From the NCBI GenBank assembly GCA_964653975.1, contig CAZZIG010000129.1, positions 5,440-69,439 of the forward strand: 64,000 nt of DNA, in the 5' to 3' direction. The translations under genes were made by a program, and so were the position numbers. The DNA is from an uncultured Acidimicrobiaceae bacterium. GTDB taxonomy: Bacteria > Actinomycetota > Acidimicrobiia > Spongiisociales > ZC4RG35. Within the stretch, counting starts at the first letter, position 1; every line of letters starts with the position of its first letter. Under the pieces are notes generated by a model. It searched no databases and had not been told where the DNA came from. It saw nothing but the letters and a program-made list of their open reading frames with translations. Of the stretch, positions 2,962 through 63,357 are shown in pieces.

Positions 2962-3261
2962 CCCGACCTCCTTCTTCGCTCGCCTTGGGGTTAGCTGACG
3001 GGCTGGAGGGTCGGCCCTACACGGGATCCACCCGGAATTCGCCCGATGATGGGTCCTTCCCACCTGGTCTGTACCAGGTTCGGGGGGAGATGCGGCATCC
3101 TAGCCGGGGGGACCTCCGGCATGATCGTGGCTTCCTCTCGTCGTATCACTGTCGTCGTATCAGAAGGACCCATCTGGCCTCTTCATCGGTGAGGAACGGG
3201 GAGAGGAGCCGAGTTGATCCTCCCGTGGCCGTGAGCCAGCGACCTCGTGGCCACAGGCAAC

Positions 3262-3296
3262 GGAGATGCACCCCGGTGTTCCCGGGGTGCATCTCC
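3262..3296 (-). terminator. Perfect 15-bp stem hairpin just downstream of the S8 peptidase stop (terminator-like, no clear U-tract)
   Basis: GGAGATGCACCCCGG-tgtt-CCCGGGGTGCATCTCC at 3262-3296, 6 nt beyond the stop codon at 3303-3305. Confidence 0.5.
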
Positions 3297-3302
3297 ATTG
3301 GG

Positions 3303-4475
3303 TCAGCCAAACTGCAGCCCGGGGACGTCGCCGTAGCTCATGGCTCGATTGGGCCAATAGGCGACACCACCAACGACTTCGACCGGTCCGCCATTCACGT
3401 AGGAGGCGGTGGCCACGGCGGCGGCGAAGGACGATCCGCTCCATTTGATGGCGTCGTCGGAATCACTGCCCCCGACACCGATGAGGTCCGATCCCGGCCC
3501 CACATCGTCCACCCAGTCGCGTGTTGGCGGCTCGACCGCGGAGTCATCCCGGTCCCAGACGACCTGTTTGCCGTCGCCGTCGGCTGCAGCCACCCCGCGA
3601 ACGTATCGGAACCCTGCGGGGTAGATCCTCTCCGCCGCGGGGGTGTTACCTGCCGCGGCGAAGACCGGAGTCTTGGGGAACACGTCGCGCCATCTGGCGA
3701 TGGCCTGCTGCAGGGTCACCATCACCAGATCGGCCTCGGTGGACCCCCCGATCGAGAGATTGAGCGCTTCGACGGCACATAGCCCCTTGTGACGCTCGAT
3801 GAGACGGTCAATGGCCCCGGCGACATGCAACTCCGTGGTCGGACCGGGCAGAGGGTGGTCGGCCTCGTGCTCGTTCTCCTGATCGAAGATTCCGGCCGCG
3901 GCGATGGAAACCGCATGTGAGGGGGCGACCTGACGGAGGAGGCTGGCGACGAATGTGCCATGACTGACCTCGTCGTCATGGAGTTCCTCCACATCCTCGA
4001 CGCCGTGGACGATGCTGGAGCTCATCCATGGCGGCAAGGATTCGGGTCTCACCACTCCCGTGTCGACCACGGCGATCACGCGGTGGCGGTCCCCGGCAGG
4101 GAGGGCGGGGAACACCACGTCCTCCACTCGGTCCGGCGTCGTCGCCGAGAAGGGTTGGTGCCAGTGGAAGCCGAGTTGGTGCACCGGGGAGGCGGTCACC
4201 CGGGCATCGGCTTCCATCACCTCTCGCGCCGCCTGCACCGGATCGTCGACGACGGCGAAATCCACGAACCGGCTCACCCGGTCGATCACGTCTGTTTCGG
4301 CCGGCTCACGCAGATGCTCCTGGAGGTCTGCCCGGTTGGCGCGCCGCCCCCGTCCCACCTCAGCCACCCGCTCCAGACCCCTCCGTCGCTCGTCGGGGTC
4401 TCTGGTGTCGATGCTGATCGCCAAGAGACCGGGAAGGACTTTGCGCCCGTGCCCCCCATCGTCTTTCTGGCTCAT
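3303..4475 (-). CDS. S8 family (subtilisin-like) serine peptidase with no recognisable signal peptide
   Basis: ORF 3303..4511(-). Catalytic-triad contexts VIAVVDTGV (Asp), SHGTFVASL (His) and WSGSSFAAAVATA (Ser), plus LNLSIGGS. Start set at ATG 4475 (MSQKDDGG...) preceded by AAGGAGGGG. N-terminus is hydrophilic and charged. Confidence 0.85.
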   Translation of the reverse strand: MSQKDDGGHGRKVLPGLLAISIDTRDPDERRRGLERVAEVGRGRRANRADLQEHLREPAETDVIDRVSRFVDFAVVDDPVQAAREVMEADARVTASPVHQLGFHWHQPFSATTPDRVEDVVFPALPAGDRHRVIAVVDTGVVRPESLPPWMSSSIVHGVEDVEELHDDEVSHGTFVASLLRQVAPSHAVSIAAAGIFDQENEHEADHPLPGPTTELHVAGAIDRLIERHKGLCAVEALNLSIGGSTEADLVMVTLQQAIARWRDVFPKTPVFAAAGNTPAAERIYPAGFRYVRGVAAADGDGKQVVWDRDDSAVEPPTRDWVDDVGPGSDLIGVGGSDSDDAIKWSGSSFAAAVATASYVNGGPVEVVGGVAYWPNRAMSYGDVPGLQFG

Positions 4476-4554
4476 GTCCCCTCCTTGTAACCGTCCTCTG
4501 GGGCGCGTCACCCCGGCGTGCGAGTATACGGAACACTGTCATGGGTGAAGTGAC

Positions 4555-7113
4555 GTGAAGCCGACTGTGCATCAGGTTTTCCAACTCGCCACCTCCGATC
4601 CCCATCGAGCCCTGGAGTTGGCCGGGTCGCTAGACGGCGATGAGCCCGCACTCTCCGCCGCAGAGCGGGCCACCCTCCATCGAGCCCGGAGCGTCGCCAA
4701 TCGTGTCCTGGGTGACTTTCAGAACGCACTCGACCTGGCCGAACGAGCATTGGCGATCGCGAGGGAGGCCGACGACGGGGCGCAACAACTCCTGGCGATC
4801 GTCACCATGGTGGGGCCCCTGCTCATTCTCGGTCGTTCTTCGGAGGCAATGGCTCGCCTCGATGGTGCCGTCGACCTGGCTACCACGCCGTATCTCCAGG
4901 CCCGGCTCTCCTATCAGAGGGGAGTGATATGGGGGATGAAGCGAGAGTTCTCGCGTGCCATCGAGGCGTTGGATGCGGCGCTTCCCGCATTCAGGGAGGC
5001 AGACGATCCCGAGATGGTGTTGGGCGCCTTGCGCGGCCGCGGGCTCTATCGGCTGGCCCTTGGCGATCTGCGTCGGGCTCGCGAAGACCTCGAGGAAGGA
5101 CTGGCCATCGCAGTCGGACGCAACGAAGAGGTGGTAGTCAGCGGGATCAAGCACAGCCTCGGTCTCCTCGCCTCCTACCGCGGGGACATCACCGAGGCCT
5201 TGCGTCTGCTGCTCGAATCTGACGAGATCTACATGCGTCTCACCGGGTCTCCCGTGCCCCAACACGTGGCCCGGTCCGATGTGCTGCTCAGCGCCGGTCT
5301 CTTCCACGAGGCATACGAGCTCGCCCATGCGATAGCCGAGCATCACCGGGCTCACGGAGATCCCGAGCATCTCGCCAATGCCCTTCTCGTCGCCGCCAAT
5401 GCCGCCCTGTTGGCAGGTGAGCTCCAGGATGCCTTGGCCACGGCGGAGAAGGCCGTGACCCAGTTCGAGCTGCACGAGAGGCCCCTCGACGCCGTCGAGG
5501 CCAGACGCATCGTCATCGAGGCCAGGTACAACCTCGAGGGAGCATCTCGAGAGCTCCTCGACAGCGCGACCGACGTGGCGACCACCCTCGAGTCGCAACG
5601 ACAGCTCGTGGCGGCGGCCCAGGCCCGTCTCCTCGTTGCCAGGATCGCGACCGACGTCGGCGATGTCGACGAGGCCGTGAGCTGGCTGGAGCCGGTGTCG
5701 AGAATCGGCACCGGGCCGGTCGAGCTCAGGATCCACGCCCTGGTGGCGACGGCGAGACTGCGACGGCTCCGTGGCGACAAGCGGCGTGCCGATGCTGCGG
5801 CGCGGTCCGGATTGCAGCTGATCGATGACTACCAGAGTGCCCTGGGCGCCACCGACCTCCGCATGGGCATCGAGCGCCACGGCTTCGAGTTGGGGGACAT
5901 CGGGCTCGATCTGGCGCTGGGCTCGGGAAACCCAAGGCGGATTTGGCGATGGATGGAACGAACCAGGGCTCGCGCCCTCCGTCATCAACCGGTGGTCGTT
6001 CCCGACGACGAGATCGGGGACGCCTTGGGGCGTCTCCGTCAGATCGAGGCCGGGTTGCGGGAGAGACAGGGGGATTCACGACTGCATCGCGAGAGACGGG
6101 CGCTTCAGGAGGAGATCCGCAACGCACATCGGCTCAGACGGTCCGAAGGGAGGTCAGCTCACGTATTCGACCTGGGGGCGCTCGTCACGGCGCTCGGCGA
6201 CCGATCTCTCCTGGAGATCGCGATCCATGACGGCCGGCTGCTGGGCGTGCACGTCTCCTCCGGGCGGGTGCGGCGGGTGGAGATGGGCGAAGCGGAGCCG
6301 GCTGTCCGCGAGCTGGTACATGTCCGATTCGCCATGCGGAGGGCGGCCCGTCTCGGGAGGGCCTTCGACGTCGGTGAGTTGGAGGCTTTGGGTGGGTTGC
6401 TCTTGGGGGACATCAGACTCGACGGCGAAGAGCTCATCCTGGTCCCGCCCCCGCGGCTGATGGCCGCTCCCTGGGCCGTCCTCCCCAACCTGGGGGACAA
6501 GGTGGTGACCGTCAGCCCGTCGGCGGAGATGTGGTGGCGGTCCCATCGTGCCGGATGGCGGGGAGACGGGGTCGTGATCGCCGGAGGCCCGGATTTGGAG
6601 TTGGCGGAGTCCGAGGTGAGTGCGGTTGCCGGTCTCTACCCCGACTCCGTCGTGCTTCCCCCCGGGTCCACCGTCGAAGGGCTGAAAGAGGCCTTGGGCG
6701 GGATGTCCCTGGCCCACATCGCCGCCCATGCCACTTTCAACAGCGAGAACCCGATGTTCTCCTCGCTCCGACTCGGCGATGGCGACCTCAATGTCTACGA
6801 CATCGAGCGGGTGAAGCCACCGCCGGCGACGGTGGTGCTCTCCGCCTGCGACTCCGGTTACACCGAGACGCGGGCCGGTCTCGAGCTCGCCGGCTTGACC
6901 TCGGCGCTGCTCAGCATGGGGACGCGGTCGGTGGTGGCCAGCATCGGGTTGGTGCCCGACTCCCCGGCCACGTCGGACCTGATGGTCCGTTTCCACCGGC
7001 GTTTGGCCTCCGGGGTCTCCACGTCGCAGGCGTTGGCCGAGACACAAGCCGAGACCTTCGACGACGCCACTGCCTTCGTCGCTGCCGCCTCTTTCGTCTG
7101 TGTGGGCGCATGA
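4555..7113 (+). CDS. TPR-repeat protein with C-terminal CHAT (caspase-like) protease domain
   Basis: 852-aa ORF with a GTG start. Long helical Ala/Leu/Arg-rich repeat region. C-terminus reads ...SLAHIAAHATFNSENPMFSSLRLGDGDLNVYDI...ATVVLSACDSGYTE, the His/Cys dyad context of CHAT domains. Confidence 0.8.
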   Translation: MKPTVHQVFQLATSDPHRALELAGSLDGDEPALSAAERATLHRARSVANRVLGDFQNALDLAERALAIAREADDGAQQLLAIVTMVGPLLILGRSSEAMARLDGAVDLATTPYLQARLSYQRGVIWGMKREFSRAIEALDAALPAFREADDPEMVLGALRGRGLYRLALGDLRRAREDLEEGLAIAVGRNEEVVVSGIKHSLGLLASYRGDITEALRLLLESDEIYMRLTGSPVPQHVARSDVLLSAGLFHEAYELAHAIAEHHRAHGDPEHLANALLVAANAALLAGELQDALATAEKAVTQFELHERPLDAVEARRIVIEARYNLEGASRELLDSATDVATTLESQRQLVAAAQARLLVARIATDVGDVDEAVSWLEPVSRIGTGPVELRIHALVATARLRRLRGDKRRADAAARSGLQLIDDYQSALGATDLRMGIERHGFELGDIGLDLALGSGNPRRIWRWMERTRARALRHQPVVVPDDEIGDALGRLRQIEAGLRERQGDSRLHRERRALQEEIRNAHRLRRSEGRSAHVFDLGALVTALGDRSLLEIAIHDGRLLGVHVSSGRVRRVEMGEAEPAVRELVHVRFAMRRAARLGRAFDVGELEALGGLLLGDIRLDGEELILVPPPRLMAAPWAVLPNLGDKVVTVSPSAEMWWRSHRAGWRGDGVVIAGGPDLELAESEVSAVAGLYPDSVVLPPGSTVEGLKEALGGMSLAHIAAHATFNSENPMFSSLRLGDGDLNVYDIERVKPPPATVVLSACDSGYTETRAGLELAGLTSALLSMGTRSVVASIGLVPDSPATSDLMVRFHRRLASGVSTSQALAETQAETFDDATAFVAAASFVCVGA

Positions 7114-7703
7114 GGAGGCTGGCCACCCTCTACGATCACACCATCGAAGACCCATCACACGGAGAACTGTTCACGCTCGCGGCCACCGGGGAGCAAGCCG
7201 CCTGGGAGGCCCTCGTCGACCGGTTCGGGCAAATGGTGTGGTCGGTGGCGCGCGGTCTCCGTCTCGACGACGCCACCGCCAAGGACGTAAGCCAAACCGT
7301 TTGGCTCAAGCTGATCGAGAACATCGACAACATCCGTGACCCGGATCGTCTCCCCGGCTGGCTTGCCACTACCTGTCGCCGCGAGGCGCTGCGGGTGGCC
7401 AAGGGGCGTGACCGGGACTTGCCCACGGAGTTCGCATATGACGTGGAGGACGAGAGCCCGACCCTGGACGAGTTGCTGGTCTCCGAAGAGGAGAATCGCT
7501 CGATCGTTGCCGCGTTCAACACCCTCGACGACATGTGCCGGCAACTGTTGCGGCTGATGATCGTCGAGCCTCCTCTCTCCTATGAGGAGATCTCCGCAGC
7601 GACCGGGCGGCCCATCGGGAGTCTCGGTCCCACCAGGGCGCGATGTCTGGAGAAGTTGAAGGGGGCGATCTCACGTATCAACCCGGCACCCGGGGCCTCT
7701 TAG
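7110..7703 (+). CDS. ECF-type RNA polymerase sigma-70 factor
   Basis: In-frame part of ORF 6531..7703. ATG 7110 overlaps the CHAT stop (ATGA). Region 2 (FGQMVWSVARGLRLDDATAKDVSQTVWLKLIENI...DRLPGWLATTCRREALR) and region 4 HTH (CRQLLRLMIVEPPLSYEEISAATGRPIGSLGPTRARCLEKLK). Confidence 0.9.
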   Translation: MRRLATLYDHTIEDPSHGELFTLAATGEQAAWEALVDRFGQMVWSVARGLRLDDATAKDVSQTVWLKLIENIDNIRDPDRLPGWLATTCRREALRVAKGRDRDLPTEFAYDVEDESPTLDELLVSEEENRSIVAAFNTLDDMCRQLLRLMIVEPPLSYEEISAATGRPIGSLGPTRARCLEKLKGAISRINPAPGAS

Positions 7704-7722
7704 TGACAGGAGGTGAGCATCG

Positions 7723-8178
7723 ATGAGCGAAATCAGTAGGGAAGAGTCGAACCTGCTCGCCGGTCTCCGCAAGGGACTGAGCGAGAGCGACCCTGTGCCC
7801 TCCGACGTCGCCCAATTCGCCAAAGCAGCCTTCGCATGGCGACAGATCGACGCTGAGCTCGCCGAGCTCGGTTTCGATTCGATCGACGAAGAGGTTCCCT
7901 CCGGTGTGCGCTCGACCACGGTCATTCGGATGCTGTCGTTCCAGGCGGGGCGATGGATGATCGACATCGAGTTCGACGAGACCGCGGGTCGACTGATGGG
8001 CGCAACCACACCTCCGGGTCGCTACACGATCGAGCTTCACACTGCAGGTGCCCGTTTCACGACGGAGTCCGACGACTCGGGGCGATTCAGCGCCGAGGGG
8101 GTGGTGCGCGGTCCGATGGGAATGGTCCTCCGTTTCGCCGACGGCGAAGTCGTCAAGACCCAGTGGGTCGTTCTCTGA
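7723..8178 (+). CDS. Hypothetical soluble 151-aa protein, third gene of the CHAT/sigma operon (candidate sigma partner)
   Basis: ATG preceded by ACAGGAGGTGAG, 19 nt after the sigma stop. No TM segment and no HxxxCxxC motif. Coding-like codon usage. Confidence 0.65.
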   Translation: MSEISREESNLLAGLRKGLSESDPVPSDVAQFAKAAFAWRQIDAELAELGFDSIDEEVPSGVRSTTVIRMLSFQAGRWMIDIEFDETAGRLMGATTPPGRYTIELHTAGARFTTESDDSGRFSAEGVVRGPMGMVLRFADGEVVKTQWVVL

Positions 8179-8212
8179 CGAGCCTCGTCGCGGCTGACCT
8201 CCTCTGAACTCT

Positions 8213-8597
8213 CGTATCAGGGTGCGACCTCATCCCTCTATCCGGATGACCGTCGCTCCGGGGCGATGGTCGTGAGGGGAGCGCAAGTGCGCTGATGTTC
8301 GGCGAGTTTCTCCCGACGGGGGAGTTCCGGGCCACCGGAGGAATCGGGTGGGGAGAACCGAGCAGACGGGCAGAGTGAGGGGGGCCGCACCGAGGGCGGC
8401 CCCCCTCTCCGTTGCCCATGATTCGAGAGTCGCCCGTGACCAAGAAGGACCCCGGGCCCTTGCGAGCCCGGGGTCGTGTTCCCCCCTTGTCGGAAAGCCT
8501 TTCCGTAGACCTTCCAGGTCGACGGAAAGGCCGCCCCCCACCGGGAAGTCCAGGAGCTTGTCTGTTGGATAGAGGGGAAGGACCGGCTCCTGATACG
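8213..8597 (+). ncRNA. Candidate large structured RNA or long structured leader (family unassigned)
   Basis: Long-range pairing 8213-8221/8589-8597 and 8234-8243/8568-8577 encloses strong hairpins at 8248-8271, 8377-8407 (perfect 12 bp), 8448-8475 (perfect 10 bp) and 8497-8531. A G-T pair in the 8248-8271 stem is tolerated only on the + strand. Overlapping ORFs are non-coding-like. Confidence 0.35.
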
Positions 8598-8613
8598 CGT
8601 TGTGTCTTGTTGT

Positions 8614-9639
8614 ATGGAACTGGGAATCACGAGCTTCGCCGAGACCATCGCTCCCCACGGCGGGGGATCGCCGGTCGGTCACGGTGAGCGACTCCGTCAG
8701 GTACTGGAAGAAGTCGATGTCGCCGAGTCGTCAGGGCTCGACGTCTACGGCCTGGGTGAGCACCACCGCCCCGACTTCGCCTCGTCGGCCCCTGCGGTCG
8801 TGCTGGCGGCCGCGGCGGGTCGAACCTCTCGGATCAGGCTCTTCCCGGCGGTCTCCATCCTGAGCACCGACGACCCGGTCCGAGTGTTCCAGCAGTACGC
8901 GACCCTCGACCTGATCTCGTCGGGACGGGCCGAGCTCCTCGTGGGTCGTGGCTCGTTCATCGAATCGTTCCCTCTCTTCGGCTACGACCTCGACGACTAC
9001 AACGAGCTGTTCGCCGAGAAGCTAGACCTTCTCGTTCAGCTCAGGGACAGCGGCGAGGCGGTCACGTGGTCGGGTCGGTTCCGACCGCCGATACGAGGCC
9101 AGGGCGTATACCCCCGTTCCGAACGCAAACTCCCGATTCGTGTCGCCGTGGGCGGAACACCCCAATCCATCGTCCGCGCCGCTTCCCGCGGGCTGGAAGT
9201 CGCCCTCGCCATCATCGGAGGGAGCCCCGAGCGATTCGCGCCGCTCGCAGACCTCTACCGGAAGACACTCACGGAGTCGGGGTATGACCCCGCGGACGTG
9301 CCGTTGTCGGTTCACGGCCACGGCTACATATCCGACAGCAACGAGAAGGCGGCCGAGGAGTACTACAGCTCGTATGCCGCCGCCATGAGTCGCCTCGGTC
9401 GGGAGCGGGGCTGGGGCCCGATGACCAAAGGACAGTTCGACTCGATGCGATCCGAGGAGGGCTCGCTCGTGCTCGGCGACGTCGAGACGGTGGCGGCCAA
9501 GATCCTGCGTTGGAAACAGATCCTCGGTATCACCCGGTTCGAGCTCCACATCAGTGTCGGGACGATGCCTCACGAAAAGGTCCTGTCGAGCATCGACCTC
9601 CTTGGCACCAAGGTGGCCCCCATCGTCAACGCCTCCTGA
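8614..9639 (+). CDS. LLM-class (luciferase-like) flavin-dependent oxidoreductase
   Basis: ORF 8602..9639. MELGITSFAETI...GLDVYGLGEHHRPDFASSAPAVVLAAAAGRTSRIRL...STDDPVRVFQQYATLDLISSGRAELLVGRGS is typical of the LLM family. Start taken at ATG 8614; GTG 8602 is possible. Confidence 0.85.
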   Translation: MELGITSFAETIAPHGGGSPVGHGERLRQVLEEVDVAESSGLDVYGLGEHHRPDFASSAPAVVLAAAAGRTSRIRLFPAVSILSTDDPVRVFQQYATLDLISSGRAELLVGRGSFIESFPLFGYDLDDYNELFAEKLDLLVQLRDSGEAVTWSGRFRPPIRGQGVYPRSERKLPIRVAVGGTPQSIVRAASRGLEVALAIIGGSPERFAPLADLYRKTLTESGYDPADVPLSVHGHGYISDSNEKAAEEYYSSYAAAMSRLGRERGWGPMTKGQFDSMRSEEGSLVLGDVETVAAKILRWKQILGITRFELHISVGTMPHEKVLSSIDLLGTKVAPIVNAS

Positions 9640-9711
9640 GCAGACAGAAAGGGAGCGGGGTTGGGTCCAGCTATTGACGCCCGCCGTCATCGCTAGTACA
9701 ACTTCCTCGCA

Positions 9712-9765
9712 ATGAGCAGCAGAGTCACGTTTCTGACCCGGCAGTGGTGGTGGTCGACCCCATAG
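9712..9765 (+). CDS. trpL: trp operon leader peptide (17 aa, MSSRVTFLTRQWWWSTP) with three consecutive Trp codons
   Basis: ATG 9712 ... TGG TGG TGG at 9745-9753 ... TAG 9763-9765. Lies 107 nt upstream of trpE and is followed by alternative hairpins and a U-tract terminator. Confidence 0.8.
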   Translation: MSSRVTFLTRQWWWSTP

Positions 9766-9833
9766 AGGTGGCGACCACACGGCTCATCCCATAGACCGAC
9801 ACAGACCCACCTCCAGCCACGAGGTGGGTTTTT
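9745..9833 (+). promoter_or_regulatory. Transcription attenuator of the trp operon (1:2, 2:3 antiterminator, 3:4 terminator)
   Basis: GTGGTCG (9750-9756) pairs with CGACCAC (9773-9779). GAGGTGG (9766-9772) pairs with CCACCTC (9807-9813). The terminator is CCCACCTC (9806-9813)/GAGGTGGG (9821-9828) followed by TTTTT (9829-9833). A possible promoter is TTGACG at 9674-9679 with TACAAC 17 nt downstream (weak). Confidence 0.75.
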
Positions 9834-9872
9834 CGATTCCCGGACTTCCGACCTCTGGTGAGGAAGGACATC

Positions 9873-11233
9873 ATGGAATCGATATTCGACATACCGGCCG
9901 ACCTCGACACCCCCGTGTCGGCCTATCTGCGTCTGAGATCGCTACGTCCCCGTTACCTGCTGGAGAGTGTCGAGGGTGGCCACACCGGCCGCTACTCGTT
10001 CATCGGATTCGGTGACACCCGGCGGGTCGTCGTCGAAGAGGACGGGGTCTACATCGACGACGCAAGAGTGAGCCCCGATCTCCTGGCGGGTCTGCGACAT
10101 GCCCTGGAGACGGCCCCGCTCTGCGCCCCGGTCGACGACGCCTCCCCGTTCCAAGGCGGGCTGGTCGGCGTGGCCACCTTCGACCTGGTGCGCCGGTTAT
10201 ACCGCCTCGCCGACTCGCGACACGGGCGCACCGGGCCCGACGGGGTGTACATCACCACCGAGTCGACTCTCGTCTTCGACCACCTGACCCGGCGGATGGC
10301 ACTCCTCCACTCCGGCTCCGAAGACGAGCGACGCCACCTCAGGTCGGACGTTCAGTCGGCATTGCGCGGCCCGCTCGACCACTCACTACCACCGGCGAGG
10401 CTCCAGACGGCCAGACCGAGCATGACCCGCGACGAATTCATGGGTGGGGTCGAGTCTGTCAAGGGTCACATCGCGGCAGGCGACGTGTACCAACTCGTTC
10501 TATCGATTCGTTTCGCAGGAGAGACCGACATCGACCCTTTCTCTGCCTACCGGGCATTGCGGCTCCTCAACCCCTCGCCCTACATGTACTTCGTGGACAC
10601 CGGGGACCGACAGGTCGTCGGGTCCTCCCCGGAAGCTTTGGCCCGGCTCAACGGGCGCAGGGCCGAGCTACGACCGATCGCCGGGACCAGGCCACGGGGA
10701 ATCGACGAAGTCGAAGACCGCCGTCTCGAGCGAGAGCTGCTCACCGACCCCAAGGAGACCGCCGAGCACGTGATGCTGGTCGACCTGGCCCGCAACGACG
10801 TCGGTCGCACTGCCTCACCCGGCACGGTGGTGGTCGATCCCTACAAGACCATCGAGCGCTACAGCCATGTCATGCACATGGTCAGCGGGGTGACAGCCGA
10901 TCTTCGCCCCGAGTTCGACGCCTTCGACCTATTCGCCGCCACCTTTCCCGCCGGGACCGTCTCCGGCGCTCCGAAGCTGCGCGCAGTGGAGATCATCGAC
11001 GAGCTGGAGCCCGTCTCCCGGGGTCTCTACTCGGGGGCGATCGGCTATTTCGGCCACGGTGGCTCCATGGACCAGGCGATCACCATCCGAACCCTGGTGT
11101 TCGAGGACGGGGGATACAGCTACCAGGCCGGCGCCGGGATCGTGGCCGACAGCGATCCCGCTGCCGAGCACGCCGAGGTCCTCTCCAAAGGGGCCATCCT
11201 GGAGGCGGCGTTGCAGTTGGCCAAGGAGGGTCT

Positions 11234-11237
<4 letters not shown>
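9873..11237 (+). CDS. trpE: Anthranilate synthase component I
   Basis: ORF 9858..11237. Start taken at ATG 9873 after GAGGAAGGA. Motifs ...GDVYQLVLS..., LNPSPYMYF, PEALARL, IAGTRPRG, ELLTDPKETAEHVMLVDLARND, GAPKLRAVEIIDELE. Confidence 0.95.
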
Positions 11238-11838
<601 letters not shown>

Positions 11839-11842
<4 letters not shown>

Positions 11843-12858
11843 AGGAGATACTCGGGAAGCTCCTCGCCGGTGAGGTCCTCGGTGACGACGAGGCGGCCGC
11901 GCTCGTGCAGTACCTGACCACAGAAGACCTCGACCAGGTGGTGGCCGGTGCCGCCCTGGCCGCACTCCGGACCCGGGGAGAGACCGCCGCCGAGGTGCGA
12001 GTGTTCGCCCGTGGTCTCCAGGATCTCGCCGTTCGCCCCGCGATCGACGACGTCTCCGACGCGGTCGACGTCGTCGGAACCGGGGGCGACGCGTCGGGCA
12101 GCCTCAACCTCTCCACAGGGGCTGCGCTGTTGGCGGCGGCGGCGGGAGCCCGGGTGGTCAAACACGGGAACCGGTCCGTGTCCAGCCGCAGCGGCAGCTT
12201 CGATGTCCTCGCTGCTCTCGGTCTCGACGTCCCCTGGGACGCGACCCGCGCCGGACACGTGTTCTCTGCCACCGGGTTCACCTACCTGTTCGCTCCCGGG
12301 TTCCATCCGGCGATGAAGTCGGTGGCGCCGGTGCGTCAGGCGATGGGAGCACGCACGATCTTCAACCTGGTCGGCCCGTTGGCCAACCCCGCCCGGGCGC
12401 CACACCTGGTCGTGGGTGCGTTCTCCCCGGAGATGGCCCGAATGATGGCCGAGACCCTGTCCGGGATGGACATCGCCCGGGCCTTCGTCGTCCATGGCGA
12501 ACCTGGATGGGACGAGCCCACCCCCGTCGGCCCCTACCTCCTCCTCGAGGTCGAGCCGGGGCGAATCCTCGAGACCGAGGAAGATCCGGCGGAACTCGGC
12601 ATTCCCAGGTGCCCTCCCGAAGCATTGCTCGGCGGCGAGCCGGCGGTGAACGCCGCAGCCATCAGGAGAGTCTTCGAAGGGGAGCGAGGTGCGCACCGCG
12701 ACGCTCTTGTCCTCGGGGCGACCCTGGCAATGAGGGTGACCGGGGTCCATCGTGAGCAGGCCCGGGAGCGAGCCGAGAACGCGTTGGAGGAGGGTCACGC
12801 CATCGATCTCCTCTCCAACCTCGCCGCCATGGCGGAACAGGAGCCGGTCGGTGTCTGA
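11839..12858 (+). CDS. trpD: Anthranilate phosphoribosyltransferase
   Basis: VDVVGTGGDASGSLNLSTGAALLAAAAGARVVKHGNRSVSSRSGSFDVL... Overlaps the trpG stop. Confidence 0.95.
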
Positions 12859-26054: not shown

Positions 26055-29000
26055 ATGGAGCCCCTGCAAATTCATCTGTTTGGCGGGTTTCTCCTGACAC
26101 GAGGGGGTGTCTCCCTGCCGCCCATTGCCTCGCGCGCCGGCCGATCCCTCTTCGCCCATCTGGTGATGAGCCGTGACCGCCCCCTTCAGCGTGACCTCCT
26201 CGCCGGAACCTTCTGGCCAGATCTCCCCGAAGGACGGGCGCGGCGACGTCTCAGTCACACCCTGTGGCAGATCCAGGACGTCGTGAACACCGACTCCGTC
26301 TCCCACCTCGACGTCACCGCCGACACCCTCAGCTTCAAGGTCTCCACCCCTTACTGGCTCGATGTGGAGGAGTTCGACCGTAACTACGAAGGGCCGGTCA
26401 GGTCCGGCACCGACAAGAGACACCACGACAGGCTGGAAGCCGACCGGCTGCGTCGTGTGGTCGATCTGTACCGGGGCGACTTCCTCGCCGGCTACTTCGA
26501 CGACTGGGTGCTGATCGAACAAGACCACTATCGCCAGCGCTACCTGACCGCGCTGGGACGTCTGGTGGACGCCACCAAGGCGAACGGGGCCTATGTCGAT
26601 GCTCTCGCTTTCGCCCGACGCCTGACCCACCACGACCCGCTCAACGAGGAGGCTCATCGCGAGGTGATGCGGCTCAGCTACCTCCTCGGACGCACCACCG
26701 ACGCCATCGAGCAGTACGAACGTTGCGTATCGGTCCTCGAAGACGAGCTCGGCGCCAAACCCTCCGCCCCCACCGTCGAGATCTACGAGAAGATCGTCAG
26801 GGAACGCAACTCGGGGATCCGGCCCCTCCGCGAGGAGGAGACGGCTGTGTTGCAGGGTCGGCGGGCCGATTCGCCCTTTGTCGGCCGCGAGGAGGAGCGT
26901 CGGGTCCTCGTCGACTCCCTGGAGCGAGTTCTGGCCGGTTCGGGCGGTGTGGCCCTCGTCGAAGGCGAACCTGGTGTCGGCAAGACACGTCTCGCGATCG
27001 AGGGGGCGGAGGATGCCCGTTGGCGGGGATTCGAGGTCAGTTGGGGCTCGTGCACTCCGGGGGCGCTGCGCCCATTCGCTCCCCTCATCGAGGTGCTCGA
27101 CTCGTTGAGCCCGCTGCGAGTCGAACAGCTCTCCGAGCAGGTGGCCCCGGTTTGGCTGGCCCAGGCCGCCCGGCTCGCACCACGTCTCGGCGATCCCATC
27201 ACCTTCGACACCCCGGTCCAACTCCGTCCCGCCGAGGAGTCGACCAGGATGATCGAGGCGCTGGTCCACACTCTCGGCGCCCTCGGGAAGATCGCTCCGC
27301 ATCTGGTGATCATCGACGACGTCCACTGGGCCGACCAGGACACTCTGTCGGTGCTCACTCAGGTGGGGGCCCGGCTCGCCGGCTCGAGGGTCCTTCTCAT
27401 GCTCCTCTACCGCAGCGAAGAGGCCCGGGGTGACGCCGAAGTCTGGGATGTCATGCGCGACCTCGATCGGGTCTCCGGGCTGGGCCGGGTGGTGCTCTCG
27501 CCACTCTCGGTCTTCGAACTCGAGGAGATGATCCGAAAGATCCTCGGCGTCGGTCGTCTCGACACCGGGATCGCCACCCATCTGCACCGCCAGACCGGCG
27601 GAAACGCCCTGTTCACGATCGAGACACTGATGGCGCTGCGGGATCGGGGCCTTTTCGAGTCCGGTATCGACCCGATGACCATCCTCGAGGGGCAACTCGA
27701 CGAGAGCGCCATCCCCGTAGCGCCTCGAGTGCGGTCCGTGATCGAGTCGCGGATCTCCCAACTCGGAGACGAAGTAGCCGCGGTGTACCAGCTGGCAGCG
27801 GTCTGTGGCGACCGGGTCGACCTCCGTCTTCTCGAGACAGCTAGCGATCTCCCCCGGGCCACGGTGCTCAATGCGATGGACGAGTTGCTCTACAGGGGGC
27901 TGATGCGCGACGACGGCGACGGCTCGTTCCGGGTGGTTCACGACCAGATCAGGCAGGTGGTCTACGAGGAGATCGAGGGCCTCCGCAGGAGAGAGCTGCA
28001 TCTCGCCGTGGGTGACGCCGTTGCAGAGTTGGAACCAGGGAACGTCGAGGCCACCGGGCACCATTTCAGGGAAGGCGGCGATCTAGCGCGGGCAGTCGAA
28101 TATCTGCGCATGGCCGGCCAGAGGGCGATGCGTCTCAATGCCTACGCCACCGCCCGTCATCATCTGCAGTCGGCCCGGGAATGCGCCGCCGCGGGCGGGG
28201 TTTCGGACCGGGACCGTTTCGATCTGCTCGGTGAGCTCGATGATGTCCTGAGTGTCCTCGGGGCCAGGACAGCCCAGGATTCGGTTGTGGAGGAGATGGC
28301 TGCGCTGGCCCGGTCCGATATCGCCTTGCAGAGGGAGGTGGAGCGACGCCGGGCCTGGTTGGCGGCACAGGTCGGGGACCTGACCCGAGCCGAGGCGAGC
28401 GCCCGCAAGTCTCTGGCCGCAGAGCGCAGCAACGGCCACGCCCGCTCCCTGGCCGGGTCACTGATAGCCCTGGGGACCATCCAACGCTGGTCGGGGCGTC
28501 CGCTACATGCCGTGCCCTCGTTGCAGGAGGCTGTCGCCACGGCCACCGAGGACTCCCAGCATGCCGACGCCCTGACCGAGTTGGCCAGCACCCTGGTCGA
28601 AGTGCAACGAGCGGAGGAGGCGATCGCTCACCTCCAGGAGGCCGCCGACATCTACCGGCGTCTCGACGATCTACGTGGTCTGGCCGAGGTGGCCGGCATC
28701 GAAGCCCGCGCCTTTCACCAACGGGGAATGCGCGACCAGGCCGTGACTCGTTACGAGCTGGCCATCGAACTGTGTCGTCGTATCGGCTATCGGCATGGCG
28801 AAGGGGTCAACCTCACCAACCTGGCCAACCTCCATCAGCTCCTCGGCAGCGTCGCGGAGGCGCTGGAGGGCTACGACCGGGCCGCGCTCATCTTCGAGGA
28901 ATTGGGCAACACCCGTGGAGAGGCCATGGTCCTCGCCAACTCGGCCTCGGCCCGCCACAACATCCTCGGTGACGACGAGCGTGCCCGGACCGACGCCACC

Positions 29001-29903
29001 AAGGCCCTGCGCCACTTCTCCGAGATCGGCGACCGGGCCCGCCAGGCGCAATGCAAGGAGGTGCTCGCCGGGATCGCGGCCCGTCGAGGACACCGCCCCG
29101 AGGCGCGACAGATGCTGGAAGAGAGCATCACCGCCCTGGAGGAGACGGGAAATGTCCTGCTCCAGGGCCAGCATCTGCGCTCGCTCGCTCTGCTCCATCT
29201 CGATGACGACGAGATCGAGGCGGCGTCGGCAACCCTCGATAGGGCGGAGCGGCTCTGTGAGAGTGCGGGTCTCGACGAGTTGGGTGTCGAACTGGAATCG
29301 ATCCGCGGGCTGATCTACCTGAACTCAGGGGCGCCCAAGGAAGCGGTGCGGACCACAGCCGCCGCAGTGCAACGGCTCACCCCAGGTGTCGAGCGGCCCT
29401 ACCTGGTGCTGCATCGGCATGCCCTGGCCGCCGAGGCCTCCGGTGACACCCAGACCGCACGTGAGGCAGGGTCACGTGCCGAAGCCGCCCTCCGCCAGAC
29501 CCTCGACGGTCTCGGCCCGGACAGCATCGAAACCGCCATCGGGTCGGTCCCCACCCACCAGGCGATCGTCAGGGCAGCAGACCGGTTCGCTCCCCTGGAG
29601 ATCGAGGTCTGGCTGCCCGCTGCGGACGCCCCGATCGGCAAGACACTCGACCATACCGACCTCCGTCGGGTGACCTGGACCGTCGAACATCCCGATGACG
29701 AGGCGCACACATCACCCCTGGAGAGGCGGAGGGCACGGCTGCTCCGTCTCCTCGACCAGGCCCGGCGGAGCGGGGCGGTTCCCTCCAGTGAGCAGGTGGC
29801 CGATGCGCTCGAGGTGAGTGCCTCGACGGTCCGTCGCGACCTCGCTGAGCTGCGGAAATCCGGCCACGACGCAACAACCAGGGGCCAGCGTCGCGCCTCG
29901 TGA
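26055..29903 (+). CDS. Large SARP/AfsR-type regulator: OmpR-like winged helix + BTAD + P-loop NTPase + TPR array + C-terminal DeoR-like HTH
   Basis: N-terminus LFGGFLLTRGGVSLP...RRRLSHTLWQI; BTAD (YRGDFLAGYFDDWVLIEQDHYRQRYL...EAHREVMRLSYLLGRTTDAIEQYERCVSVLEDELGAKPSAPT); Walker A VEGEPGVGKT, then LVIIDDVHWAD; TPR-like repeats; C-terminal SSEQVADALEVSASTVRRDLAELRKSG. Confidence 0.85.
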   Translation: MEPLQIHLFGGFLLTRGGVSLPPIASRAGRSLFAHLVMSRDRPLQRDLLAGTFWPDLPEGRARRRLSHTLWQIQDVVNTDSVSHLDVTADTLSFKVSTPYWLDVEEFDRNYEGPVRSGTDKRHHDRLEADRLRRVVDLYRGDFLAGYFDDWVLIEQDHYRQRYLTALGRLVDATKANGAYVDALAFARRLTHHDPLNEEAHREVMRLSYLLGRTTDAIEQYERCVSVLEDELGAKPSAPTVEIYEKIVRERNSGIRPLREEETAVLQGRRADSPFVGREEERRVLVDSLERVLAGSGGVALVEGEPGVGKTRLAIEGAEDARWRGFEVSWGSCTPGALRPFAPLIEVLDSLSPLRVEQLSEQVAPVWLAQAARLAPRLGDPITFDTPVQLRPAEESTRMIEALVHTLGALGKIAPHLVIIDDVHWADQDTLSVLTQVGARLAGSRVLLMLLYRSEEARGDAEVWDVMRDLDRVSGLGRVVLSPLSVFELEEMIRKILGVGRLDTGIATHLHRQTGGNALFTIETLMALRDRGLFESGIDPMTILEGQLDESAIPVAPRVRSVIESRISQLGDEVAAVYQLAAVCGDRVDLRLLETASDLPRATVLNAMDELLYRGLMRDDGDGSFRVVHDQIRQVVYEEIEGLRRRELHLAVGDAVAELEPGNVEATGHHFREGGDLARAVEYLRMAGQRAMRLNAYATARHHLQSARECAAAGGVSDRDRFDLLGELDDVLSVLGARTAQDSVVEEMAALARSDIALQREVERRRAWLAAQVGDLTRAEASARKSLAAERSNGHARSLAGSLIALGTIQRWSGRPLHAVPSLQEAVATATEDSQHADALTELASTLVEVQRAEEAIAHLQEAADIYRRLDDLRGLAEVAGIEARAFHQRGMRDQAVTRYELAIELCRRIGYRHGEGVNLTNLANLHQLLGSVAEALEGYDRAALIFEELGNTRGEAMVLANSASARHNILGDDERARTDATKALRHFSEIGDRARQAQCKEVLAGIAARRGHRPEARQMLEESITALEETGNVLLQGQHLRSLALLHLDDDEIEAASATLDRAERLCESAGLDELGVELESIRGLIYLNSGAPKEAVRTTAAAVQRLTPGVERPYLVLHRHALAAEASGDTQTAREAGSRAEAALRQTLDGLGPDSIETAIGSVPTHQAIVRAADRFAPLEIEVWLPAADAPIGKTLDHTDLRRVTWTVEHPDDEAHTSPLERRRARLLRLLDQARRSGAVPSSEQVADALEVSASTVRRDLAELRKSGHDATTRGQRRAS

Positions 29904-63224: not shown

Positions 63225-63357
63225 CTCCACTCCGCTGCACACCGTCACCCAAGACACCACCCAACGCAGCCCAAACCAAAACCAACCTGACCCCCTCCAC
63301 TCCGCTGCACACCGTCACCCAAGACACCACCCAACGCAGCCCAAACCAAAACCAACC
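63225..63357 (+). repeat. Perfect 63-nt tandem direct repeat (two copies, 7-nt spacer), C-rich and G-poor on the + strand
   Basis: CTCCACTCCGCTGCACACCGTCACCCAAGACACCACCCAACGCAGCCCAAACCAAAACCAACC at 63225-63287 and again at 63295-63357. The 70-nt period is not a multiple of 3. Confidence 0.9.

Follow-up and report, generated by a model that had tools for sequence, protein, structure and literature searches.

We analysed a four-gene cassette in a 64-kb stretch of DNA from an uncultured Acidimicrobiaceae bacterium (contig CAZZIG010000129.1), called here the window, which encodes a subtilase of family S8, a protease composed of tetratricopeptide repeats (TPR) and a CHAT domain, a sigma factor of the extracytoplasmic function (ECF) type, and a small protein of 151 amino acids (aa). 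An earlier reading of the same DNA from its sequence only (the sequence-only reading) had listed a signal-less S8 subtilase, a TPR-CHAT protein, an ECF sigma gene overlapping the latter in an ATGA, and a 151-aa open reading frame (ORF) 19 nucleotides (nt) further on, and all of these are present at the coordinates it had assigned (Table 1). The gene calls were confirmed by independent calls of 390, 852, 197 and 151 aa in a relative whose proteins are 92-95% identical to those of the window; in the S8 gene, an alternative in-frame start, a GTG at 4511, would give 402 aa. When the four proteins were searched with profile hidden Markov models (HMMs), as that reading had proposed, Peptidase_S8, CHAT/TPR_12 and sigma70-ECF models were matched by the first three, and the 151-aa protein had no match in Pfam, NCBIfam or PADLOC. 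Against the closest relative, the ratios of nonsynonymous to synonymous substitution rates (dN/dS) over the four cassette genes are 0.17, 0.18, 0.14 and 0.13; the flanking monooxygenase gene has a ratio of 0.08. As judged from these ratios, all four genes are under purifying selection, and the whole-gene values give no signal of positive selection in any of them. Among near relatives, the median identity is 37% for S8, 48% for the CHAT protein, 55% for the small protein and 70% for the sigma factor. Hydropathy analysis detected no convincing transmembrane segment in any of the four window proteins.

Table 1. Genes and features of the cassette (positions in the window; AF2, AlphaFold2 model)
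Feature	Position (nt)	Strand	Residues	Remarks
S8 protease gene	3303-4475	-		390 aa; ATG at 4475 with GGAGG upstream; Pfam Peptidase_S8, E 2.3e-7
S8 catalytic domain	3357-4091	-	129-373	Pfam and AF2
S8 catalytic residues	4062-4064; 3960-3962; 3645-3647; 3429-3431	-	D138; H172; N277; S349	N277, oxyanion residue
S8 prodomain	4170-4439	-	13-102	AF2: N-terminal alpha/beta domain
Divergent intergenic spacer, S8/TPR-CHAT	4476-4554	.		79 nt
TPR-CHAT protease gene	4555-7113	+		852 aa; Pfam CHAT, E 3.9e-29; TPR_12, E 2e-12
TPR array	4669-5454	+	about 39-300	Pfam TPR_12
TPR-CHAT middle region		+		between TPR array and CHAT domain; helical; no Pfam match
CHAT domain	6418-7068	+	622-838	Pfam PF12770, clan CD
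CHAT conserved residues	6715-6717; 6727-6729; 6847-6849	+	H721; H725; C765	
ECF sigma gene	7110-7703	+		197 aa; ATG overlaps CHAT TGA (ATGA, 7110-7113); TIGR02937 sigma70-ECF, E 5.9e-18; Sigma70_r2, E 2.9e-10
Small-protein gene	7723-8178	+		151 aa; 19-nt gap after sigma gene, GGAGG
Small-protein helices	7738-7866	+	6-21 and 27-48	AF2
Small-protein linker	7867-7920	+	49-66	AF2 low confidence; flanked by near-invariant D52-S53 and G-V-R63
Small-protein R63	7909-7911	+	63	near-invariant
Small-protein eight-strand beta-sandwich	7927-8172	+	69-150	AF2

To survey related loci, we scanned one genome per GTDB species with a peptide pattern of the small protein, which found 280 loci, the best 80 of which were retained, and we counted gene content by tblastn, then with HMMs built from the matches, in the 44 loci where the small gene has 7 kb or more of sequence on either side. 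The sigma gene is present in 44 of these 44 fully flanked loci, CHAT in 41, S8 in 40, and all four genes in 40. The cassette occurs in at least 11 gene orders and spans Acidimicrobiia, Thermoleophilia, Actinomycetes and Nitriliruptoria-like metagenome-assembled genomes (MAGs). The commonest order is that of the window, with S8 divergent from CHAT-sigma-small (29 loci), followed by CHAT divergent from S8-sigma-small (11 loci); in Nonomuraea gerenzanensis, which has S8-sigma-small with a divergent CHAT gene (7,898,103-7,913,539 of NZ_LT559118.1), identity to the window reaches 40% for the sigma factor and 31% for the small protein. Because the linkage survives the shuffling of gene order and orientation across classes of the phylum, these comparisons indicate that the four genes are a conserved functional unit across Actinomycetota, which answers a question that the sequence-only reading had raised about its neighbourhood. 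Chance co-location of the four genes was rejected, since 40 of the 44 fully flanked loci carry them all.

Within this unit, the order of sigma gene followed by small gene is kept while the proteases move: the two genes lie next to each other in every one of the 44 fully flanked loci, the median gap between them is 11 nt, and in both major layouts the translation of the sigma gene is coupled to that of a protease gene. Close pairing of a sigma gene with a downstream partner gene is the usual layout of sigma/anti-sigma pairs. By gene order, then, the small protein appears as the constant, tightly coupled downstream partner of the sigma factor, which fits a soluble sigma partner. Three fully flanked loci (L021, L078 and L084; also L039 in the case of S8) keep the sigma-small pair although CHAT or S8 is missing from the surrounding 8 kb. 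The module thus has this pair as its core, and in such genomes the protease genes may lie at other sites. Two loci (L028 and L030) come from one MAG, and therefore paralogous copies of the cassette exist. The module also turns up in eight MAG records under the title 'uncultured Acidobacteriota bacterium' (L015, L018, L019, L022, L027, L028, L030 and L058), with sigma factors 66-70% identical to that of the window; these titles may misstate the taxon, or the module may have moved from one phylum to another. In the N. gerenzanensis locus (L004, 5716-8548; NZ_LT559118.1), the TPR and CHAT parts lie in two overlapping frames, 5716-7659 and 6734-8548, which suggests a frameshift or a sequencing error. 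This record is labelled 'plasmid I', yet at 11.85 Mb it is evidently a chromosome.

The small protein of the window contains no cysteine and therefore no HxxxCxxC motif, and it has no transmembrane segment, its highest Kyte-Doolittle hydropathy over 19 residues being 0.74; both absences had been noted from the sequence, and the transmembrane threshold is reached by none of 83 small proteins. A profile of the small protein matched 3303 representative clusters (50% identity) at E≤1e-3. With few exceptions, the 150 best matches listed measure 145-170 aa, and NCBI annotates family members as 'hypothetical protein'. Over 147 divergent sequences, the best-conserved positions are P26, L46-A47, D52-S53, R63, F73, G93, G120 and F122, with a conservation of 1.00 for P26 and 0.99 for both D52 and R63. 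The stretch from S53 to R63, in the linker that joins the predicted helices to the beta-sandwich, is 7-11 residues long in 140 of these 147 sequences and bears the local motif [A/V]-G-V-R-[G/S]. Pfam CarboxypepD_reg is matched by 13 of 36 diverse members (best E 1.6e-6), and by these matches we take the sandwich to be a divergent CarboxypepD_reg-like domain. A Foldseek search with the model returned generic Ig/FN3-like sandwiches only (E≥3e-3), and the family profile gave no credible match among PDB chains, the lone one being a designed protein at E 0.12. In one family representative of 207 aa (P0186), the N-terminal helical module (DPVP...WRTIDAELAEL) stands in tandem duplicate before a single beta-sandwich; owing to this duplication, the helical part appears to be an independent unit.

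The sigma factor belongs to group 4 (ECF) and has sigma-2 and sigma-4 regions only, TIGR02937 covering residues 31-185 of 197. Its closest solved chains are SigE, RpoE and SigK, and 1589 homologues were found at E≤1e-5, with named Acidimicrobiia as the top matches and Acidimicrobiia/Actinomycetota MAGs as the source of the related loci. Only about 18 residues lie ahead of region 2, and therefore there is no obvious pro-sequence.

That the 852-aa TPR protein ends in a CHAT domain, as the sequence-only reading had it, is borne out by the Pfam matches and by the motifs LAHIAAHATF (residue 719) and VVLSACDSGY (residue 760), whose His/Cys residues (H721/H725, C765) are conserved in 59 of 60 orthologous loci. 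The protein has no Walker A motif, and a phmmer search against all PDB chains (E≤1) matched just TPR proteins (Pins, LGN), with no Csx29 or other CHAT chain among them. In near relatives, the median identity falls from 60% in the CHAT domain to 47% in the middle region and 38% in the TPR array, and in S8 the prodomain is likewise the fastest-changing part, with a median identity of 29%. Fast change of the TPR array and the S8 prodomain would be as expected of input and control modules.

In the S8 subtilase, the intact Asp/His/Ser contexts and the hydrophilic N-terminus described from the sequence were both found again. The Asp, His, Asn and Ser residues are invariant in the alignment of 50 orthologues, and neither a signal peptide nor a transmembrane segment was detected, the top hydropathy being 1.16 at residue 179 and the N-terminus having no hydrophobic stretch. 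The AF2 model is of high quality (predicted local distance difference test 88, predicted template modelling score 0.91) and shows a low-confidence junction, residues 103-110, between the prodomain and the catalytic domain. Its best Foldseek matches are unautoprocessed pro-subtilisins and PCSK9, with 370-430 aligned columns that cover both domains; the Pfam I9 model does not match the propeptide, and a PDB sequence search with S8 was uninformative. The catalytic triad, the oxyanion Asn and a packed N-terminal propeptide domain, all present, place the protein in the pro-enzyme class of MEROPS family S8 with an I9-like propeptide. As the model is that of an unprocessed pro-subtilisin, S8 is probably a cytoplasmic pro-subtilisin-like zymogen without a signal peptide. 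Missing catalytic residues in either protease, or a neighbourhood not conserved in relatives, would have spoken against the earlier idea of a proteolytic switch; the neighbourhood is conserved and the catalytic residues are present.

In the 79-nt spacer between the divergent genes, an alignment of seven related loci revealed a sole conserved block, GCGAGTATAC(GGAAC), with a GTATAC core. On the S8 strand this core reads TATACT (plus-strand 4523-4528), a -10 hexamer of the housekeeping type, and a GC-rich inverted repeat (GGGGCGCGTCACCCC in the window, about 4500-4515) lies between it and the S8 ribosome-binding site. These elements (4500-4535) may be an S8 promoter together with a hairpin in the 5' untranslated region or an operator. 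A scan of 3000-8700 for the sigma-70 consensus and for terminators found no full promoter and no operon-relevant terminator.

The domains encoded around the sigma gene recall ECF54, an actinobacterial group without a canonical anti-sigma factor, whose neighbours carry CHAT, subtilase and carboxypeptidase(-regulatory-like) domains and for which proteolytic regulation has been proposed (PMC8999054). That account draws on Huang et al. 2015 and Casas-Pastor et al. 2021 and uses a Geodermatophilus protein as its model; SFT86700.1 of Geodermatophilus amargosae is an example of an ECF54 sequence. In the window, an ECF sigma factor from Actinomycetota is followed by a +1 gene that encodes no canonical anti-sigma factor, with CHAT, S8 and CarboxypepD_reg-like neighbours. 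Since the phylum, the missing canonical anti-sigma factor and all three context domains agree, we file the cassette as ECF54-type by gene context. The best explanation of the cassette is a self-contained, wholly cytoplasmic signalling unit of ECF54 type in an Acidimicrobiia chromosome. The three context elements occur in the window and the four genes in 40 of the 44 related loci. Among the differences from the published descriptions, these do not treat the +1 gene as a partner of the sigma factor, and they concern cultured Actinomycetes, whereas the window example comes from MAG-type genomes of Acidimicrobiia. No experimental study of any ECF54 member was found in the literature searched. The proteolytic switch envisaged by the sequence-only reading is not new and essentially re-derives the published ECF54 hypothesis. 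The present analysis adds that the module extends to Acidimicrobiia and other classes, that the sigma and small genes are constantly paired, that S8 is of the pro-subtilisin kind, and that a very large protein family without a name bears a candidate cleavage motif.

Our best model, in which our confidence stops a little short of even, is that the small protein is a soluble anti-sigma factor destroyed by the protease pair, whereupon the sigma factor is freed. The small protein would keep the sigma factor inactive through its two N-terminal helices, as a soluble anti-sigma factor of a new class. A signal sensed by the fast-evolving TPR array would turn on the CHAT protease, which would cut the linker of the small protein after the near-invariant Arg63, at [A/V]-G-V-R | G/S; enzymes of clan CD such as separase and the metacaspases cut after Arg. 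S8, relieved of its inhibitory prodomain by autoprocessing or by CHAT, would then degrade the remnant and free the sigma factor. The whole would amount to a two-protease relay like that of DegS, RseP and ClpXP on RseA, in soluble form. We counted in favour of this anti-sigma/two-protease model the pairing of the sigma factor with the small protein, the constrained linker around Arg63, the conserved catalytic residues, the zymogen fold of S8, the conservation of the four-gene unit, the translational coupling, the lack of membrane segments and the fast change of the TPR array and S8 prodomain. Of the proteolytic sigma-release switch proposed from the sequence, the conserved neighbourhood, the catalytic residues and the constant sigma-small pair stand; the release itself is what we infer. 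More tentatively still, and here we would expect to be wrong rather than right, the +1 small protein may found a new and very large class of soluble anti-sigma factors, each made of two helices, a cleavable linker with an Arg, and a CarboxypepD_reg-like beta-sandwich. ECF54, for a decade on record without any regulator, would then be run by a cytoplasmic TPR-CHAT to pro-subtilisin relay widespread in Actinomycetota, the chromosomal and CRISPR-independent equivalent of the sigma switches of Craspase and SAVED-CHAT.

Several observations weigh against the anti-sigma/two-protease model. Known anti-sigma domains consist of three or four helices and the small protein has two, and no known anti-sigma domain in Pfam, NCBIfam or PDB resembles its N-terminal helices in sequence. 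Which of the two proteases cuts what is a guess on our part. The 4Fe-4S cluster protein that Casas-Pastor et al. 2021 add to the ECF54 neighbours was not seen, an ORF with a CxxCxxCxxxC motif occurring in just 3 of 82 loci in a screen confined to ferredoxin motifs. We found no conserved ECF-type autoregulatory promoter upstream of the operons: in a crude enumeration of bipartite -35/-10 motifs over 72 upstream regions, the best one occurred in 12 of the 72, compared with 13 in the control (reverse-complement, shuffle). Csx29, the TPR-CHAT protease of type III-E systems, needs no Arg at its cleavage site (PMC10028731). Finally, the 2021 classification describes ECF54 as an actinobacterial group without an anti-sigma factor or a clear regulator, and its authors caution that context cannot tell regulators from targets among neighbours (Casas-Pastor et al., PMC7826278).

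Of the other readings, the likeliest one, which we nevertheless consider unlikely, is that CHAT and/or S8 degrade or process the sigma factor itself to set its level, the small protein serving as an adaptor, stabiliser or co-factor. Proteolytic control was proposed for ECF54 in the review (PMC8999054), PCaspase cuts PCc-sigma directly in a type III-B cascade (10.1101/2023.06.23.546230), and the translational coupling of a protease gene to the sigma gene would also suit direct proteolysis. Such a scheme leaves unexplained why the small protein is the most constant neighbour and why a near-invariant Arg sits in a linker of fixed length, and the sigma factor, as noted, has no obvious pro-sequence.

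Less likely again is a cascade of initiator and executioner, in which TPR-CHAT would activate pro-S8 at its prodomain junction, the small protein would inhibit S8 in the manner of PCi or serve it as a decoy substrate, with Arg63 as the P1 residue of a reactive-site-like loop, and the sigma factor would be a substrate or the output. The fold of S8 as an unprocessed pro-subtilisin with a low-confidence junction at 103-110, the fastest evolution within S8 at its prodomain, the conserved-Arg loop of constrained length, and a four-part layout parallel to the SAVED-CHAT, PCaspase, PCc-sigma and PCi set described below are all points for such a cascade. The alignment consensus, however, has no conserved basic residue at the S8 junction, the beta-sandwich is unlike known protease inhibitors (its Foldseek matches being the generic Ig/FN3-like ones at E≥3e-3), and when the gene order changes the small gene follows the sigma gene, not S8.

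It is quite improbable that the neighbours are the regulon of a sigma factor controlled elsewhere, for example transcriptionally, which would switch on CHAT, S8 and beta-sandwich effectors for stress proteolysis, dormancy or programmed cell death. The warning of Casas-Pastor et al. about regulators and targets (PMC7826278) applies to precisely this case, and no other conserved neighbours fit to be sigma targets were found around the module. The operons nevertheless share no upstream ECF-type promoter motif in our crude test, the S8 gene of near relatives has the housekeeping-like TATACT element, and the tight coupling of the sigma and small genes is typical of a sigma factor with its direct regulator.

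A CRISPR-independent anti-phage or conflict system, with a TPR array that senses a phage protein and proteases that trigger defensive transcription or abortive infection, seems improbable to the same degree. Wherever a CHAT protease paired with a sigma factor has been studied by experiment, there is a link to defence; besides, the parts for sensing and control change quickly, and one MAG holds paralogous copies (L028, L030). Yet the genomic setting is of another kind: the window cassette is flanked by a Na+/H+ exchanger-Usp fusion, an LLM monooxygenase and the trp operon, a synteny that is stable among relatives, the positions of the exchanger and the monooxygenase being kept in those examined, and the flanks of distant loci hold metabolic genes, not defence islands. 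PADLOC gives weak matches at the domain level only (S8 to IetS, E 6e-6; CHAT to BovA, E 4e-4) and none for the sigma factor or the small protein; no copy of the small protein was found in 72,556 plasmid records, bar a single mislabelled chromosome, or in 50,697 phage records; and the whole-gene dN/dS values carry no sign of positive selection. The link to NTP-dependent conflict systems drawn by the sequence-only reading is unsupported and was rejected, as the CHAT protein has no P-loop, the cassette contains no NTPase gene, its PADLOC matches are weak, its flanks are of the housekeeping kind, and its small protein is missing from the plasmid and phage collections.

Beyond the cassette, the segment downstream differs between the window (8602-12858) and its closest relative (L086, 1-1816; 92-95% protein identity): in the relative, a 64-aa ORF and then trpD come after the monooxygenase gene, and the window has trpE and trpG (9858-11842) in the interval, which looks like a gain or loss of trpEG between near-identical genomes. 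At 26055-29903 on the plus strand, 18 kb away from the cassette, a 1282-aa protein with BTAD, AAA_16 and TPR domains is a large transcriptional activator of the SARP/LAL type; no other NTPase-TPR protein was found among the large ORFs. The interval 63225-63357 holds a 70-bp unit duplicated in tandem without mismatch (1.9 copies, 100% match), rich in C and with repeats of the ACC/CCA type.

On its own, the window provides a well-supported functional annotation of four genes and not a new kind of system. Should the model of a soluble partner and two proteases be true, the regulator gap of ECF54, among the few ECF groups still without a known regulator, would be filled, a soluble, proteolysis-gated class would be added to the anti-sigma factors, and the CHAT-protease-to-sigma logic of type III CRISPR systems would turn out to be also a housekeeping signalling device in a major phylum.

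A known counterpart is Craspase of type III-E CRISPR (clustered regularly interspaced short palindromic repeats) systems, in which the TPR-CHAT protease Csx29 cleaves Csx30 and thereby relieves the inhibition of CASP-sigma, with further degradation of the fragment suspected (PMC10028731). Both encode a TPR-CHAT protease together with an ECF-like sigma factor and a soluble two-domain protein, an inhibitor in the case of Csx30. In contrast to type III-E loci, which have the effector Cas7-11 (gRAMP) and a CRISPR array, the 64 kb of the window contain no CRISPR-like array (Tandem Repeats Finder), and no cas-related Pfam domain was found in its ten largest other ORFs, the smaller ones not all having been scanned, in agreement with what had been read from the sequence; the large ORFs include the BTAD-AAA-TPR regulator, a UvrD-like helicase and an M14 peptidase. 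The window proteins have no detectable sequence similarity to Csx29, Csx30 or Csx31 chains, the partner has 151 aa compared with 565 aa for Csx30, and the window adds a second protease, S8. What is shared with Csx29 is just the Pfam CHAT superfamily and the TPR+CHAT architecture. Thus, the parallel with type III-E drawn by the sequence-only reading holds at the level of logic and fails at that of homology, as no match to Csx29, Csx30, Csx31 or anti-sigma PDB chains was obtained.

The type III-B system of Haliangium has a parallel parts list: alongside a CHAT protease stands another protease that is produced in an inactive precursor form, plus a sigma factor and a small protein. There, SAVED-CHAT activates PCaspase, which then cleaves the sigma factor PCc-sigma and the small inhibitor PCi (10.1101/2023.06.23.546230). 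Its sensor is a SAVED domain that binds cA3 and its second protease a C14 caspase, whereas the window has TPR and a pro-subtilisin S8; the Haliangium cascade also includes a kinase and stands in a context of CRISPR or cyclic-oligonucleotide-based anti-phage signalling (CBASS). In Myxococcus xanthus, the ECF sigma factor DdvS is controlled by DdvA, a protein with the TPR-CHAT architecture of the separase/craspase type (PMC11506125). DdvA differs in being a transmembrane, zinc-binding anti-sigma factor with a periplasmic CHAT domain whose active site is incomplete, while the TPR-CHAT protein of the window is separate and soluble, with a complete His/Cys pair and no zinc motif. In the RseA pathway, successive proteolysis by DegS, RseP and ClpXP destroys the anti-sigma factor and frees sigma-E. 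That pathway is embedded in the membrane and senses the envelope, in contrast to the window module, which has no convincing membrane segment. As analogies, not homologies, the precedents of Csx29, SAVED-CHAT and DdvA make credible the logic by which a CHAT protease could govern the sigma factor of the window.

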